Both the position numbers and the translations under genes were made by a program. From the IMG/VR virus record IMGVR_UViG_2802429248_000011, positions 1-19,329 of that record: 19,329 nt of DNA; one strand, written 5' to 3'. Under the pieces are notes generated by a model. The model searched no databases, was not told where the DNA came from, and saw nothing but the letters and a program-made list of their open reading frames with translations. Below are positions 1-16,926 of the stretch, piece after piece (the first letter of the stretch is position 1; each line of letters begins with the position of its first letter). This DNA comes from a virus (lineage: Duplodnaviria; Heunggongvirae; Uroviricota; Caudoviricetes).

Positions 1-462
1 ATCCCGTTTCAGGAAATCAACATGTCGGTTTTCCAGTTCCGGAAAACGCCGCTGTACCGAGAGAGGGATCCCGTCAAGAATACTGGCAATTTCACCTGCG
101 ATCCGTGACAGCACGAAAGTACAGAATGCGGTTTCCACCACTTCTGCGGAGTCTCTGGCATTCTTCAGCTCCTGGGCGTCAGCCTGCGCACGCGTAAGTC
201 GATGGCGTTCGTACTCAATAGTCCCAGGCTGGAGATCTGCCTCGCTGGCAGCCCTGTAATCCTCAACCTCTTTACGGAGTTTTTCATTTTCGATATCAGC
301 TTCCCTCTGCGCATACCACTGAATTGCCATGGCGGTATCAAATACAGATTCAACGCCCTTACCACCTCCGGAGACGCAAGGGAGTCCCTGAGACTGCCAG
401 CGTTCAATCGTTCGCGGATCCACGTTGAAAATTTCGGCAAGTTTCTTTTTATTAACCTTCAT
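1..462 (-). CDS. nu1: Terminase small subunit, lambda Nu1-like (3' end cut by window edge)
   Basis: Minus-strand ORF with ATG at 460-462 running off the window start. Translation begins [23 protein letters not shown] and continues ...[58 protein letters not shown]..., matching lambda Nu1 as I remember it. It lies directly beside a lambda-type cos site. Confidence 0.9.
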
Positions 463-638
463 GAAACAGTCTCACAATAAATACAGGGTCCGACATGAAA
501 GTGCCCGAAAATGACTTTTTTAGGCGTTTTCATGTCGGACCTTTTACGGATTCGATATTAGAAAAAACAGATAGTTATGTTCGAGAAGTACCGACATGAT
601 TTTCCCCGGAAAATTTTCATAAATAGCGAAAACCCGCG

Positions 639-650
639 AGGTCGCCGCCC
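639..650 (-). other. cosN cohesive-end sequence of a lambda-type cos site (cosB expected in 463-638, cosQ side in 651-700)
   Basis: Minus strand reads GGGCGGCGACCTCGCGGGTTTTCGCTATTTATGAAAATTTTCC, which matches the lambda left end as I recall it. The plus-strand flank CGTAACCTGTCGGATC..CCGGAAAGGACCCG resembles the lambda right end. Position between Rz and Nu1 is as expected for a prophage. Confidence 0.8.
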
Positions 651-922
651 CGTAACCTGTCGGATCGCCGGAAAGGACCCGCAGGCGTTCTGGTTTATTC
701 GCAATGAATTCAATATCTGACAGACCTGAATACACGTCCTGTTTCTTCCACCCCCGCACAGGACTGGCGAGCATGAGGGACAAACCCGCGCACCATAAAC
801 GCGGTAAAAACCCGGTGTGCATCGTTTTTGATTATTCCCGCACACTCACGCAGAAGGAATTCCCCGTCGGGCTACGGTCATGGTTAATGCGGGAATACAG
901 CGACGATACTGCGCATGATGTG

Positions 923-1472
923 TCAGACTTGAATACCCTTATCGAATCCCGGTAATAAAAACTGTCCCTGTCTCTCCAGGCGTTTCAGCTTTGCAAGCAA
1001 TTGAGGTTTTTTCGTTCTTCCCCAGCGATTGAGCAGCCGGCCAGACATACTGGCGACATCCTTCTCTTTCATATACTCCAGCATTATGGCGTTGCGTTCT
1101 GCTTCATAACTTTCGCTGTACTTACGGAGTTCTGCTGACATCCAGTTAAAGGCATTTATATAGGCCTCTTTAACGGCGTCGGCTTTTGCGCCATTAAATC
1201 CCATGACCAGCATAACGAAGCCACTAAAGTCCATGCGGTAGTAAATCTGTTTCTTGTCGAAAATCCCTAATTCATTGATTTTTTTCGGCAACGCAAAAAT
1301 GCGCGCTCCGGAAATCTTCAGAGCAATGACAATTTTTCAGCGCCCTCAATACGTCCGCGTGACGCTTACCAAAAGCCTTTGCGATCTGGAAGGTGTCAGT
1401 TACCGGTTGACCTTCTGCTGCGGTAACTAACTGGCGAAAGTCAAAGTCATGATTCACAATTAATTCATTCAT
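923..1472 (-). pseudogene. Rha-family phage regulatory protein (antirepressor-like), reading frame broken in an A7 homopolymer
   Basis: Two overlapping minus-strand ORFs (1272..1541 and 923..1291) together encode a Rha-like protein (N part ...QPVTDTFQIAKAFGKRHADVLRAL..., C part ...YYRMDFSGFVMLVMGFNGAKADAVKEAYINAFNWM...). The frames join if the A7 run (plus 1279-1285) is read as A6. Likely start is ATG at 1472 with an AGGTAA Shine-Dalgarno. Confidence 0.55.
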
Positions 1473-1623
1473 GGCGTTACCTGCTACTTCGAAATGAACC
1501 TTTGCCGCACAGGAAACCAGCCCACCGAGGCTCGCCAGCACTAACTGGTATCCTCAAAGGCCCATTCCAAAGGGTCAGGTTCGGTGGTTATTGTGCGCTG
1601 CGGTGCGCGGTGAAATACCTATA

Positions 1624-1652
1624 CAAAAACGCCCCGCATCTGCGAGGCATTT
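1624..1652 (-). terminator. Possible intrinsic terminator downstream of the lysis cassette
   Basis: Minus strand GCCTCGCAGATGCGGGGCGTTTTTG: imperfect GC-rich hairpin followed by a T5 run, just after the Rz stop. Confidence 0.3.
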
Positions 1653-1690
1653 TCCTGAAAGTCACTTGTTAAATTTCAGTGAAATTAAAA

Positions 1691-2140
1691 TTATTTTAAG
1701 CACTGCGTCCTAATGTACTCCTGCAAGTAGTTAACCTGCGCGGTTATCCTGTCGATTCCACTTCGGAGACGGTAATAATTGAGTTCAGCATCTGCTGTAA
1801 GTCTTGGGCTTTCTCCATCGCCCATGCCGCTGGCTCCGGTCTTTGACTTTGCACAGGAGGCGGCGACTTGCAGCCGCTTACGCCCAGCAGAAACATCATC
1901 ACGGAGACTTTCGATAGTCGCGTTAGCATCAGCAAGCTCCTTTGTATATCTGGCATCGAGTTCTGCTACATCACGTTGACGCTTCTGCATATCAGCGATG
2001 ATGGATGTGGCTTTATCGCGCTGGTCTTTGTAGGCGATGGCGTTATCACGGTAATGATTAACAGCCCATGACAGGCAGACGATGATGCAGATAACCAGAG
2101 CGGAGATAATCGCGGTTACTCTGTTCATTACTGACCCCAC
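1691..2140 (-). CDS. Rz: Rz inner-membrane spanin (i-spanin)
   Basis: 149-aa ORF with an N-terminal TM segment ([19 protein letters not shown]) and coiled-coil periplasmic domain, similar to lambda Rz as recalled. Overlaps the end of R and contains an embedded +1-frame lipoprotein ORF. Confidence 0.9.
1744..1929 (-). CDS. Rz1: Rz1 outer-membrane lipoprotein spanin (o-spanin), embedded in Rz; start codon uncertain
   Basis: ORF wholly inside Rz in another frame. Signal peptide with lipobox ...LLGVSGC followed by a proline-rich mature region ([17 protein letters not shown]...), the typical Rz1 architecture. Confidence 0.7.
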
Positions 2141-2622
2141 AAACAGATTTCACGCTCAATCTCACGACGAGTCATGAGACCTTTCCATTGCTTACCGCCA
2201 GCATATGTCCAGCGACGTAGCTGATCACATGCGCCTTTGATATCGCCCTGGTTTATTTTGCGAAGAAGCGTCGATGTTCTGAAATTGCCAGCACCCACGT
2301 TGTAAACGAATGAGTAAAGAGCGCCGCGCGTTGTTTCCGGTATATCGACTTTGATGTACGGGTTAATTTGTCTGGCGACAGTGGCAAGGTCTTTATTCAA
2401 GAGTGCTTTGCATTCTGCTTTGGTATACGTTTTACCGAGCATGATGTCTTTTCCTGTATGCCCGTGACATACAGTCCATACACCAACAATATCTTTGTAT
2501 GGTATGTAGCTGACACCTTCCAGACCATCGTTACCACTTGGGCCAGTGATTAACACTGATGCTATAGCAATTGCTCCGCCACCAATAGCAGCAACAACGG
2601 CTTTTCGTAATGATGGAGGCAT
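2128..2622 (-). CDS. R: SAR endolysin (phage 21 R-type lysozyme)
   Basis: 164 aa. N-terminal Gly/Ala-rich SAR segment ([20 protein letters not shown]) and the Glu35/Asp44/Thr50 catalytic positions (..[22 protein letters not shown]..). Near-identical to the phage 21 / DLP12 lysozyme as recalled. Confidence 0.92.
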
Positions 2623-2837
2623 TATTCACCTCTCGCAGCCTTACGCCTGTCTTCTTTAATCTTGAAATAAAGATTTGTCAGATACGTCAGCAGGCCAAAA
2701 ACCAGGCTACCCAGCACACCGATTGCAGCCCACTGTGACGGAGTTACTTTATCGAGTAACTGCAATGCCCAGAAACCAGCATTACCCGCCGATGTGCCAT
2801 AGGCAACACCTGTTGTTAACTTATCCATTGATTTCAT
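2622..2837 (-). CDS. S: Pinholin (phage 21 S-type holin) with dual-start motif
   Basis: 71 aa beginning [26 protein letters not shown]... with two TM segments. The Met1-Lys-Ser-Met4 dual start is typical of S21 antiholin/holin. Its stop overlaps the R start. Confidence 0.9.
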
Positions 2838-3309: not shown

Positions 3310-3590
3310 AATATTGTGGTGCTTTTTGTGAGAGTCATCCACTTACGCACTTTGTTTTGCTATGCCAGCAGTTAGCTTCTGCTGTAAAACTATTCATGCA
3401 GCAAACCTGCACTTCACCACAATGGTTAGCATACTTTTCCTGATTAAGTTATTACCAAATATGCTGGCCATTGTTTCATGTATTGGACCGCCTTACTCTT
3501 TATTAAAGAGATCCAATATTCACCACTCTGTCTGTATCTCCACTCAGGCATCAGCCTTCTTCGTTATCGTATACAGACAAACTATGAATT

Positions 3591-3806
3591 TTAATCATTA
3601 ATGATGACATTTGCTGCTGCAGGACCTTTAGCACCACTCTCTACAGAGAAGGTAACCTTTTGACCTTCAAATAAGGTTCGATAATTATCATTCTGAATCG
3701 CAGAAAAATGCACAAACACATCTTTACTACCATCAACAGGAGAAATAAAGCCGAAACCTTTATCAGCGTTAAACCATTTTACTAAACCAGTCATTTTATT
3801 TGACAT
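3591..3806 (-). CDS. cspB: Cold-shock protein, CspA family (CspB-like)
   Basis: 71 aa [67 protein letters not shown]...; canonical cold-shock-domain RNP motifs; long upstream untranslated region as in csp genes. Confidence 0.9.
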
Positions 3807-4105
3807 TCTACATTCCTTAACTTGAGCCTTTCGGCATAAATGGTTTGTATAACAGAAACGACTTCGTACTTAATTGGAGAGACTCAAAGAAGGAATAAGT
3901 GAATAACACCTGAAATGAGAACTGCTTTAGTAAACTACTTCGTATATCGTCTGTTCTTCAAACCGACGCAATCATTAACGCATAGTTGAACATATGAAGC
4001 AATGTTTATTTTAGACATCCAGCCATCTTCAACCCCATCAAAAAACTATAGCTTTCTTCAGGAACGTGTGTATAGTGCGCCAAGTTATCAGTATTAAGGA
4101 ATTTT

Positions 4106-11803: not shown

Positions 11804-11994
11804 GGACGCACCTCCGCCGTAGTTACGTATTTAACCGGGCTACCTTTCATTGAGATGGTTTCACACATCTCTGCCGCTTTCAGTTCCGCCGTTTTTCTGG
11901 ATTTATAGCGACGGTGCCAGACAGATACATCCGTGCGAACTGATACATCGTTTCTGTATTCCGTAGTGGAGATGATGATTTCGTAACTAATCAT
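11800..11994 (-). CDS. Hypothetical protein (64 aa)
   Basis: GGGAGG Shine-Dalgarno 7 nt before ATG 11994, which overlaps the upstream stop (ATGA); MISYEIIISTTEYRNDVSVRTDVSVWHRRYKSRKTAELKAAEM... Confidence 0.55.
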   Translation of the reverse strand: MISYEIIISTTEYRNDVSVRTDVSVWHRRYKSRKTAELKAAEMCETISMKGSPVKYVTTAEVRP

Positions 11995-12653
11995 GGGCGT
12001 ACCTCCCATTGATTACGGCGAAAAGCAGTGTGATTCAGGCTGGTTTCAGCCTCATGGAATGCTCCAATGCAGCTCTCGTAGTACCGCATTGTGCGTAGAC
12101 TTAACCCAAGCTGAAGCATCATCAGGCCATCAAGGGTGATGTAATAACCACGCAGGGAGTCACCATAGATGTGGTAAGTACCCGGTATGAAGTTGCGGGT
12201 AAAAAATTCGCGCGAGCAGTTCAGATACTCGATTTTGTCGACGATGTTCTGGTGCATGCGCTTAAAGTGGCAGGCAACATGCAGGGAGAAAATAACAGCT
12301 TTGCCGTTGACGACTTCGATTTTGAGGAATGGGGAAGTTGGGACTGTAGCCATGATGGCAGCCTCCTTGATCGGTGAAAAACTTCCACCACCGGAGCTGC
12401 GAAACTCATGGGTGGTGAACTGAACAGGGTTCGCAGTACCGGCGATCAAGGAAACCGGCGAGCCTTTCGGCTCCCCTGCCCAGCCCACCATAATTCTGGC
12501 GTGCGTGAGCGCAGACGATAAAAAAGACGCTGGCGCGTCGTATATCGCCTTGATCAATTCCGGGCTGCGACCCCCGGCACCCGCTTTATAAGGTGCTGGA
12601 ACAGTGTAACGTCCCGAAATTACAGAATCAATATTTTGGCTTGAAACATTCAT
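11991..12653 (-). CDS. Hypothetical protein with Gly/Ser/Pro/Ala-rich N-terminal region and folded C-terminal domain; start codon uncertain (open frame extends to 12887; strong internal Shine-Dalgarno + ATG at 12353)
   Basis: 897-nt open frame. The first in-frame ATG (12653) lacks a Shine-Dalgarno; an internal ATG at 12353 has AAGGAGG 8 nt upstream. C-terminal domain ...YYITLDGLMMLQLGLSLRTMRYYESCIGAF... is not confidently assignable. Confidence 0.5.
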   Translation of the reverse strand: MNVSSQNIDSVISGRYTVPAPYKAGAGGRSPELIKAIYDAPASFLSSALTHARIMVGWAGEPKGSPVSLIAGTANPVQFTTHEFRSSGGGSFSPIKEAAIMATVPTSPFLKIEVVNGKAVIFSLHVACHFKRMHQNIVDKIEYLNCSREFFTRNFIPGTYHIYGDSLRGYYITLDGLMMLQLGLSLRTMRYYESCIGAFHEAETSLNHTAFRRNQWEVRP

Positions 12654-12677
12654 ATGCTTACTGGTATTTTTACTAAC

Positions 12678-12767
12678 GCAAATGTTCTTGGATGTTACTG
12701 GCTTACTTCTTTGTGAGGTTGCCTTTACTAACGTTGAGCGAGCCGGGTCACTACCCGGCTTTTTTTC
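12678..12767 (+). ncRNA. Candidate oop-like antisense small RNA (about 90 nt)
   Basis: Promoter-like TTGAAA (12641-12646), 18-bp spacer, TG-extended -10 TGgTATTTT (12662-12670), and a strong plus-strand terminator ending at 12767. Antisense to the Rha-2 stop and the region upstream of the next gene. Confidence 0.3.
12741..12767 (+). terminator. Intrinsic terminator oriented against the pR-type operon (antisense terminator)
   Basis: Plus strand AGCCGGGT-CACT-ACCCGGCT followed by T7; on the minus strand the hairpin is preceded by A7 and has no U-tract. Confidence 0.6.
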
Positions 12768-13473
12768 ACCGCTGCCAACCAATAACCTGAAATAACCCCA
12801 TTTTCGGGTGATACCAGCGAGTCCCTCGCGGTTCTGCTTCCGCCATAACCTGATGGAAAGCAGCCATAAACGGTTCCACGGCAACAATTGCGCGACGTGA
12901 CAACAATCCGTCCGGCGTCATGAACTCATGGGTGTCTGTAGGAATTTGATAAGCGTTCACCAGATTGCGGCATTTATCATCTGACAAACCGGTTTTCGCT
13001 TTCAGTTGGCGATATCCGGCATAGCCCTCACGAATGTTGCCCTTTTTGATTTGCTCAACTGTTTCGGCAACGTGGCTGACTTTTTCTTCCACCTGAGTGA
13101 TCCGTTTCTGCTGACGAACAGCTTCAAGAGCCATCGCGGCAACCATTTCGATTTCGCTCATTGGCTTACGGATCTGTTCTTCCAGTTCGCGCCAGCGATC
13201 TACTAGGCGGGCTGTGAATTCGGGACAAAGCTGTGCGACGACAATGATGCTGTCGCGCTTACCTTGTTCGCCTTCGAAGATGTAAGCACCTACATTTCGT
13301 TTTAATCCTAAGTTGTTGATTATTTCGAAATTCGCCATTGGCGCACTTCGAATAATCCCCTTATCCATGAGCCTTTCAATGCTGCGCTTAACATCTTTGT
13401 GTTGGCTGCCCACCAACTCTGCGATTTCAAGGCTGGTCATGGATGCTTTGCCGTTAAAAATTGCGGTGTTCAT
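12766..13473 (-). CDS. Rha-family phage regulatory protein (antirepressor-like)
   Basis: 235 aa. N-terminal ...MTSLEIAELVGSQHKDVKRSIERLMDKG... fits the Rha domain pattern; its ATG overlaps the cro-like stop (ATGA). Confidence 0.78.
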   Translation of the reverse strand: MNTAIFNGKASMTSLEIAELVGSQHKDVKRSIERLMDKGIIRSAPMANFEIINNLGLKRNVGAYIFEGEQGKRDSIIVVAQLCPEFTARLVDRWRELEEQIRKPMSEIEMVAAMALEAVRQQKRITQVEEKVSHVAETVEQIKKGNIREGYAGYRQLKAKTGLSDDKCRNLVNAYQIPTDTHEFMTPDGLLSRRAIVAVEPFMAAFHQVMAEAEPRGTRWYHPKMGLFQVIGWQR

Positions 13474-16644: not shown

Positions 16645-16926
16645 ATGTCAAATCAGAATAAAATTAATGTATTTCAGGTTGAATCAAAACATAAAACACC
16701 TGTGATAAAACACGTTCGCCGCCATACACTCATCTATACGCCAGAAGAGTTTATGGCAATTCCAATGATAAAGAAGTTTATTCGTGATAATCCCGATCAC
16801 ATTGCTATAGATAAACATAACGGAGAAATAATGTTATCACGCGAACTTGCCGAAATTTACTGTAACGTGAATAACGGTAAAAAATTGAAAAAGGCAATCC
16901 GAAAAAAATCAGGAGTAACAAAATGA
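16645..16926 (+). CDS. Hypothetical protein (93 aa) with Lys-rich C-terminal tail
   Basis: Starts 2 nt after the upstream stop and overlaps the next start (ATGA); C-terminus ..NNGKKLKKAIRKKSGVTK. Confidence 0.62.
   Translation: MSNQNKINVFQVESKHKTPVIKHVRRHTLIYTPEEFMAIPMIKKFIRDNPDHIAIDKHNGEIMLSRELAEIYCNVNNGKKLKKAIRKKSGVTK

Follow-up and report, generated by a model that had tools for sequence, protein, structure and literature searches.

The window, i.e., the whole 19,329-nucleotide stretch of DNA analysed here, represents the right arm of a lambda-like prophage, the left end of which is read on the − strand. At this end, the genes of the lysis cassette, the slot occupied by rha, the cohesive-end site, and a small terminase gene follow one another (Table 1), with rha located between Rz and cosN. 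The earlier note had described the gene as lying near cos, and the lambda cohesive-end sequence is indeed found at the expected place. The start of the window is the end of the source contig and falls inside the Nu1-type small terminase gene. In the stretch between cos and rha, two ORFs, 544..822 (−) and 704..955 (+), are listed as “hypothetical proteins” in relatives; the first of them spans cosN, and both may not be real genes. A promoter and terminator scan of positions 600-1800 has given chance-level matches only. In the late region, positions 3526-3967 (−) match the cspA thermoregulator over its full length (157.9 bits), in agreement with the CSD cold-shock genes and YnfS/YnfU-like small genes called there on the source contig, and this region fits a Qin/DLP12-like moron cluster between Q and holin. 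Farther to the right, the window comprises Q, replication genes, a cro-like/cI-like pair, and an integrase.

Table 1. Positions of rha, its fragments, and other features of the prophage arm discussed in the text.
Feature	Position	Strand	Basis
Nu1-type small terminase, cut by the end of the window and contig	1..462	−	
cosN, lambda cohesive-end sequence GGGCGGCGACCT	639-650		
Frameshifted rha orthologue in full, a pseudogene in its present state	923..1541	−	domains, TIGR02681, orthologue identity
3′ fragment (ORF2), +1 frame relative to ORF1	923..1291	−	ORF reading and Pfam
5′ fragment (ORF1)	1272..1541	−	ORF reading and Pfam
A7 homopolymer, +1 insertion site	1279..1285	−	sequence, alignments with relatives
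Rz	1691..2140	−	
Lysozyme	2128..2622	−	
Holin	2622..2837	−	
Early-region gene with Phage_pRha domain, intact, 235 aa	12766..13473	−	

The T7 tract on the + strand corresponds to an A7 run on the coding − strand, and two overlapping − strand ORFs flank this run. ORF1 encodes 89 amino acids when read from GTG or 66 from the ATG at 1470-1472. Its product consists of native residues up to ...CVAEK, after which the out-of-frame residues N and Q are added before the TGA stop at 1272-1274 (codons GCC-GAA-AAA-AAT-CAA-TGA, i.e., ...FCVAEK-N-Q-stop). ORF2 encodes 122 amino acids from a TTG at 1289-1291 and begins as (TTG)-CCG-AAA-AAA-ATC-AAT... (MPKKINELGIF...). As read from the sequence, this nominal start has no well-spaced Shine-Dalgarno element, the nearest GGAG being 14 nt upstream. 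Removal of one A creates a continuous ORF of 182 amino acids from the ATG at 1470-1472 or 205 from the GTG at 1539-1541; the junction then reads ...FCVAEKINELGIF..., and the protein across it ...CVAEKINELGIF.... Relatives bear at the same position either A6 (GAA-AAA-ATC, E-K-I) or GAG-AAA-ATC.

In the repaired protein, the Phage_pRha domain (PF09669) is recognized with 78.5 bits against a cutoff of 29.9; the match covers residues 25-112 and profile positions 1-90 of 91 and spans the junction. C-terminal to it lies an ORF11CD3 domain (82.8 bits), while TIGR02681 matches with 69.8 bits (cutoff 45.95) and phrog_518 with 1e-83. Taken apart, the fragments share the Phage_pRha profile between them: ORF1 alone corresponds to positions 1-41 with 27.9 bits, which is under the Pfam cutoff, and ORF2 alone to positions 51-90, together with the complete ORF11CD3 (84.3 bits). 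By domain profile, therefore, the repaired A6 protein belongs to the Rha family, and the unrepaired gene, with its profile halved and ORF1 below the cutoff, does not pass. Since the profile crosses the junction, and since orthologues with 92-99.7% nucleotide identity are collinear with the locus except for a single-base gap in the run, the neighbourhood of ORF1 and ORF2 is no chance juxtaposition, and the two are parts of one gene. The earlier claim that a Rha-family gene is split here by a frameshift in A7, with A6 restoring a protein of ~182 amino acids, is thus supported by the sequence, the domains, and more than 150 orthologous sequences.

Both Phage_pRha and ORF11CD3 are among the HMMs of the Bro network of domain-shuffling phage regulators (PMC10111431). 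The rha product has the architecture of this network, an N-terminal DNA-binding module (Phage_pRha) joined to a swappable C-terminal module (ORF11CD3), and in some relatives KilA-N genes are situated at the same locus in place of rha. Two PHROG families named “anti-repressor” align over their whole length with parts of the repaired protein, phrog_15204 (79 positions) with residues 1-66 and phrog_20738 (103 positions) with residues 80-182. They look as if they had been built from halves of frameshifted or mis-called rha genes of phage records; the 103-residue profile of phrog_20738 corresponds to the MDFSGF... fragment. Another type of shortened rha is represented by AVS47464.1 (P0057; complete genome of E. 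coli CFSAN018748) and P0002, where ...KYSESYE is succeeded by a short tail of unrelated sequence (PERSRRGSISVHWH...) and ORF11CD3 is lacking. These alleles are a different truncation or rearrangement of rha in other genomes.

The founding member of the Rha family is rha (ORF201) of phage P22. The window gene is its orthologue, because it shares 95.6% nucleotide identity with P22 rha over 619 nt and occupies the same slot after an Rz-type lysis gene, and because it is 99.6-99.7% identical to intact rha genes of E. coli phages and prophages. In P22, the late operon is likewise arranged as holin-lysozyme-Rz (gene 15)-rha, with the packaging genes next in order, and the domain make-up (N-terminal Phage_pRha, C-terminal ORF11CD3) and the GTG/ATG start region of rha in P22 and phi80 are as in the window. 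Differences from P22 concern the run itself (A6 in P22, A7 and a split gene in the window), the last ~35 codons, which belong to the E. coli/lambda-like variant and not to the P22 variant, and the adjoining packaging module, which is lambda-type cos/Nu1 in the window and pac/gene 3 in P22. The closest intact orthologues have been found in the phage IdasGreatGrand (PP925829, annotated as “anti-repressor”, 99.7%) and in E. coli prophages (WP_096941708, “Rha family transcriptional regulator”; 99.6% for the gene so named in E. coli CP182378). Their neighbours are window-like, with an Rz-like spanin gene upstream and cos plus a Nu1/nohD-type small terminase gene downstream; however, they bear A6 followed by GAC (Asp) and have rha as one CDS, whereas the window bears A7 and GAA (Glu).

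The description of the locus as a second Rha-family gene in this prophage is likewise correct, as an intact 235-amino-acid Phage_pRha gene is present in the early region (Table 1). It is only a distant paralogue of late rha, with 32% identity over 50 residues and another C-terminal part, and is unlikely to substitute for the lost gene. An A7 tract at 12760-12766 (+; A7 on the − strand) has been considered as a second frameshift and rejected, since it lies just after the TGA of the early Rha gene, and relatives annotate separate Rha and Ash genes there; the tract precedes a hairpin GCCGGGT-AGTG-ACCCGGC and is overlapped by a TTG-start ORF, 11991..12887. Just downstream of the early Rha-domain gene, the 5′ half of an ORF homologous to “ash family protein” (11994..12653) contains matches to two Rfam families above their gathering scores, the C4 antisense RNA (12408-12495, −; 85 bits) and the Hfq-binding RNA isrK (12520-12596, −; 57.6 bits). 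This region resembles a regulatory module of the P1 c4/ant or Gifsy-1 isrK type, and Ash may have been annotated with an over-extended N-terminus.

The length of the run in related prophages and phages, a comparison proposed in the earlier note, has been followed in several collections. A degenerate pattern in which the run was allowed to grow by up to 6 bases, its minimum being A6-equivalent and hence blind to A5 deletions, has yielded 103 homologues (73 from IMG/VR, 5 from GTDB species representatives, and 25 from metagenome contigs), and the run has an in-frame length in 103/103. In 73 of the 103 (71%), the site reads GAGAAAATC, so the run is broken and amounts only to A4, and the remaining 30 (~29%; P22-type and related E. 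coli alleles) carry GAAAAAATC. A blastn probe against deposited phage genomes, which also covers the A5 alleles that the pattern could miss, has found A6 in 30 of the 32 genomes with an A-run allele, A5 in two (Salmonella phages 22 and 25), and A7 in none. A 76-nt megablast query at the tract is uninformative because a private substitution of the window disrupts the 28-mer seeds, and blastn probes have been used instead. With a 68-nt A7 probe, 316 E. coli records cover the site, and among the best 25 of these 316, A7 occurs in ETEC1702 only. Compared with the window, each full-length megablast alignment inspected in complete E. coli genomes lacks one base; the sole exception, H20, is a more divergent partial match with 86% identity and shows zero net length difference. 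Over window positions 1-2100, IdasGreatGrand differs by two substitutions and this single-A indel.

The longest run observed at the site in any homologue is A7. Split products identical to those of the window are found on 1 contig, as against 61 contigs for the intact 205-amino-acid protein of the nearest relatives. Because the in-frame length, A6 or its GAG equivalent, prevails in nearly all relatives and the intact protein so outnumbers the split one, the in-frame state is ancestral and overwhelmingly dominant, and the A7 of the window derived.

The same run has changed its length elsewhere. A second A7 allele, with another residue differing in the 89-amino-acid fragment that ends ...AEKNQ*, is present in GCA_003358715.1 (NCBI) and in SRR10536657 (Logan assembly); this rha is P22-type, 92% identical to the gene of the window, and on the SRR10536657 contig it stands beside Sf6/P22-type packaging genes. 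The third A7 is that of ETEC1702 (NZ_CP122929), where the gene is marked “frameshifted” by PGAP. Compared with its sister ETEC4089 (NZ_CP122625), which bears A6, the extra A is the sole difference in 3,068 bases around rha, so either the mutation is very recent or one of the two assemblies contains a homopolymer consensus error. ETEC1702 and ETEC4089 are complete genomes of pig ETEC from Belgium. One A is lost, not gained as in the window, in two Salmonella phages deposited from India, 22 and 25, and in phage 25 the A5 gene is annotated as two “putative antirepressor” pieces; phage 34, with an adjacent accession (KR296688), bears A6.

All these alleles have an indel in the identical homopolymer of the same gene, and the other A7 alleles give the same truncated ...AEKNQ* N-terminal product as the window. 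Since their backgrounds are unlike that of the window (a P22-type 3′ end, Sf6/P22-type packaging genes), they represent independent events. In total, the run has changed its length at least 3-4 separate times (A7 in the window, in GCA_003358715.1/SRR10536657, and in ETEC1702; A5 in phages 22 and 25). Because the A6-to-A7 change recurs in at least two backgrounds besides the window, the run is a generic indel hot spot with a frequency of ~1%, and such changes are to be expected of any coding A6 in a dispensable gene.

The best explanation of the locus, with a probability of roughly 70%, is a genuine A6-to-A7 mutation that has inactivated rha and left a simple, non-programmed pseudogene allele. 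The gene affected is a late-operon accessory gene between the holin-lysozyme-Rz lysis cassette and cos of a lambda-like prophage, and the insertion itself would have arisen from ordinary replication slippage. The extra A causes a +1 shift behind codon 64, counted from the ATG, which is midway through the DNA-binding Rha domain, with a stop two codons on, and the 118 remaining codons, i.e., the second half of the Rha domain and ORF11CD3, are placed in another frame. The gene product is presumably non-functional. Full-length protein might be made at most in traces, via unprogrammed slippage of RNA polymerase or if tRNA-Lys slips by +1 on the A run. Loss of function with no more than this trace leakiness is expected because nothing suggests that either the +1 slip or the loss of an A is stimulated, the arrangement is not conserved, and the TTG start of ORF2 is poorly spaced.

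Mutants that lack rha are viable, and it was their growth on him hosts for which they were selected; as lytic growth does not need the gene, its loss would be tolerated. The Rha phenotype is known only from the genetics of phi80 and P22, where this late-operon gene makes a product harmful to lytic growth in an IHF-deficient (him/hip) host (PMC4936722, a summary of Mozola & Friedman 1985 and of later work). The loss of rha should not disable the prophage, and the other genes in the window look intact.

The principal competitor, less probable though to be taken seriously, is a sequencing or assembly artefact: the isolate would truly possess A6 and an intact rha, the extra A, perhaps together with the neighbouring substitution, being a miscall or consensus error. 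The source of the window is a draft WGS contig, PTSI01000028.1 of GCA_002965825.1 (56,972 bp), which ends inside the Nu1 gene, and this A7 allele is private to that one contig, a change of homopolymer length being a classic type of error. Moreover, a second private change, a substitution at 1275 (+; GAC to GAA, Asp to Glu, on the − strand), is located only 4 nt from the run and is confined to the same assembly; GAA at this position has been found neither in the 103 collection matches nor in complete E. coli genomes. It is unlikely (roughly 1%) that two private changes should fall within 5 nt by independent events, in 2.1 kb with otherwise a single difference; the pair suggests a single complex event or else a local fault in the sequencing or assembly. 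Discrepancies at this very run are also seen in records that are plausibly erroneous, such as A5 in phages 22 and 25 against A6 in phage 34, and ETEC1702 and ETEC4089 differ by only this base in 3 kb. A literature search for PTSI00000000, aimed at the sequencing platform, has given no match.

Against an artefact stands the quality of the rest of the window. The 22 other genes at 6.4-19.3 kb are full length in comparison with a complete-genome relative, and the other homopolymers of six or more bases agree with that relative, divergent intergenic stretches excepted, or match known alleles, so that systematic over-calling of homopolymers in the assembly is unsupported. The sole other A7-versus-A6 difference has been examined as a possible second private expansion, namely A7 at 16902-16908 (+), whose context, CCG-AAAAAAA-TCA, is nearly identical to that of the rha tract. 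It lies at the 3′ end of ORF 16645..16926, and in the 96%-identical relative CP039404 it is A6, so that the final few residues of the ORF differ, as does its overlap with the DUF5406 gene that comes next. However, among 11 complete E. coli genomes that contain this segment, A7 is found in 7 and A6 in 4; A7 here is the commoner natural allele, and the suggestion has been rejected. The end of the contig in a repeated prophage gene would be typical of short-read assemblies, whose consensus rarely miscounts A7. Finally, genuine A7 alleles do occur, as the frameshift of the other lineage is present identically in two separately assembled data sets. A real mutation is favoured over an assembly error because the rest of the window is without frameshifts or unusual homopolymer lengths.

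Far less probable is a functional role of the tract, either as a phase-variable switch or as a recoding site from which regulated full-length Rha would be produced by the A7 allele. The idea has certain attractions: the run has changed its length repeatedly, as described above; according to the sequence, the exact wild-type protein would be restored if tRNA-Lys slipped by +1 on A-AAA-AAA-U or if the transcript lost one A; and since Rha harms the phage in some hosts, its down-tuning could in principle be useful. In known cases of homopolymer phase variation and programmed slippage (dnaX, transposases of IS elements, contingency loci), the length of a coding A run decides the downstream frame, as it does here, but, unlike in those systems, the rha run comprises only 6-7 nt, is not conserved, is in-frame in nearly all relatives, and is in the wrong frame for −1. 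Homopolymers serving phase variation or transcriptional slippage usually have at least 8-9 nt, and a run of seven is short for efficient slippage of RNA polymerase. A phase-variable locus implies a conserved and long tract, but 71% of the homologues retain only A4, and the maximum is A7. It also implies that ON and OFF lengths are both common between genomes, but off-length alleles are rare: 0/103 (insertions only), 2/32 phage records, and 1 among the best 25 of 316 E. coli records, so that both tract lengths are not common across the genomes compared. Viable phages carry the in-frame A6.

A programmed frameshift or slippage gene would, in turn, be marked by an appropriate frame and a conserved split, but the split is a rare derived state, the run has no conserved stimulatory element, and no stop or structure is placed as a +1 stimulator, the TGA being two codons downstream and not adjacent. 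The −1 programmed frameshifting on A-AAA-AAU is ruled out: the −1 frame leads to ...KKSMN-stop and ends after five codons, and it cannot rescue ORF2 because ORF2 lies in the +1 frame. Equally doubtful is a weaker version of the same idea, namely that the A6 of GAAAAAATC rha alleles acts as a mild recurrent mutational switch, with Rha lost and regained by the gain or loss of one A and the A7 state leaking full-length Rha. If it were true, the switch would be of advantage where Rha is harmful, e.g., in hosts with low IHF. Off-length alleles at ~1% resemble neutral decay or occasional miscalling rather than a contingency locus. Among the three causes offered in the earlier note, error and genuine mutation are both possible, with mutation favoured, while on/off switching is not borne out for a run of 6-7 nt that is absent in 71% of homologues and whose off-length alleles are rare and scattered.

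With inactivation by a genuine mutation as the preferred reading, the locus is nothing out of the ordinary: it carries a frameshifted allele of a well-known phage gene, and annotation pipelines already flag alleles of this kind. Its biological weight is small: what has probably been lost is a single accessory late gene, in a lambdoid prophage that otherwise looks intact. As to annotation, 923..1541 should be given as one frameshifted rha pseudogene and not as two small “anti-repressor” or hypothetical genes; split rha calls are already in databases, as the two PHROG families that look like rha fragments illustrate. If the prophage is inducible, it would be a natural rha-null that may be compared with the near-identical rha+ phage IdasGreatGrand with regard to the poorly understood function of Rha.
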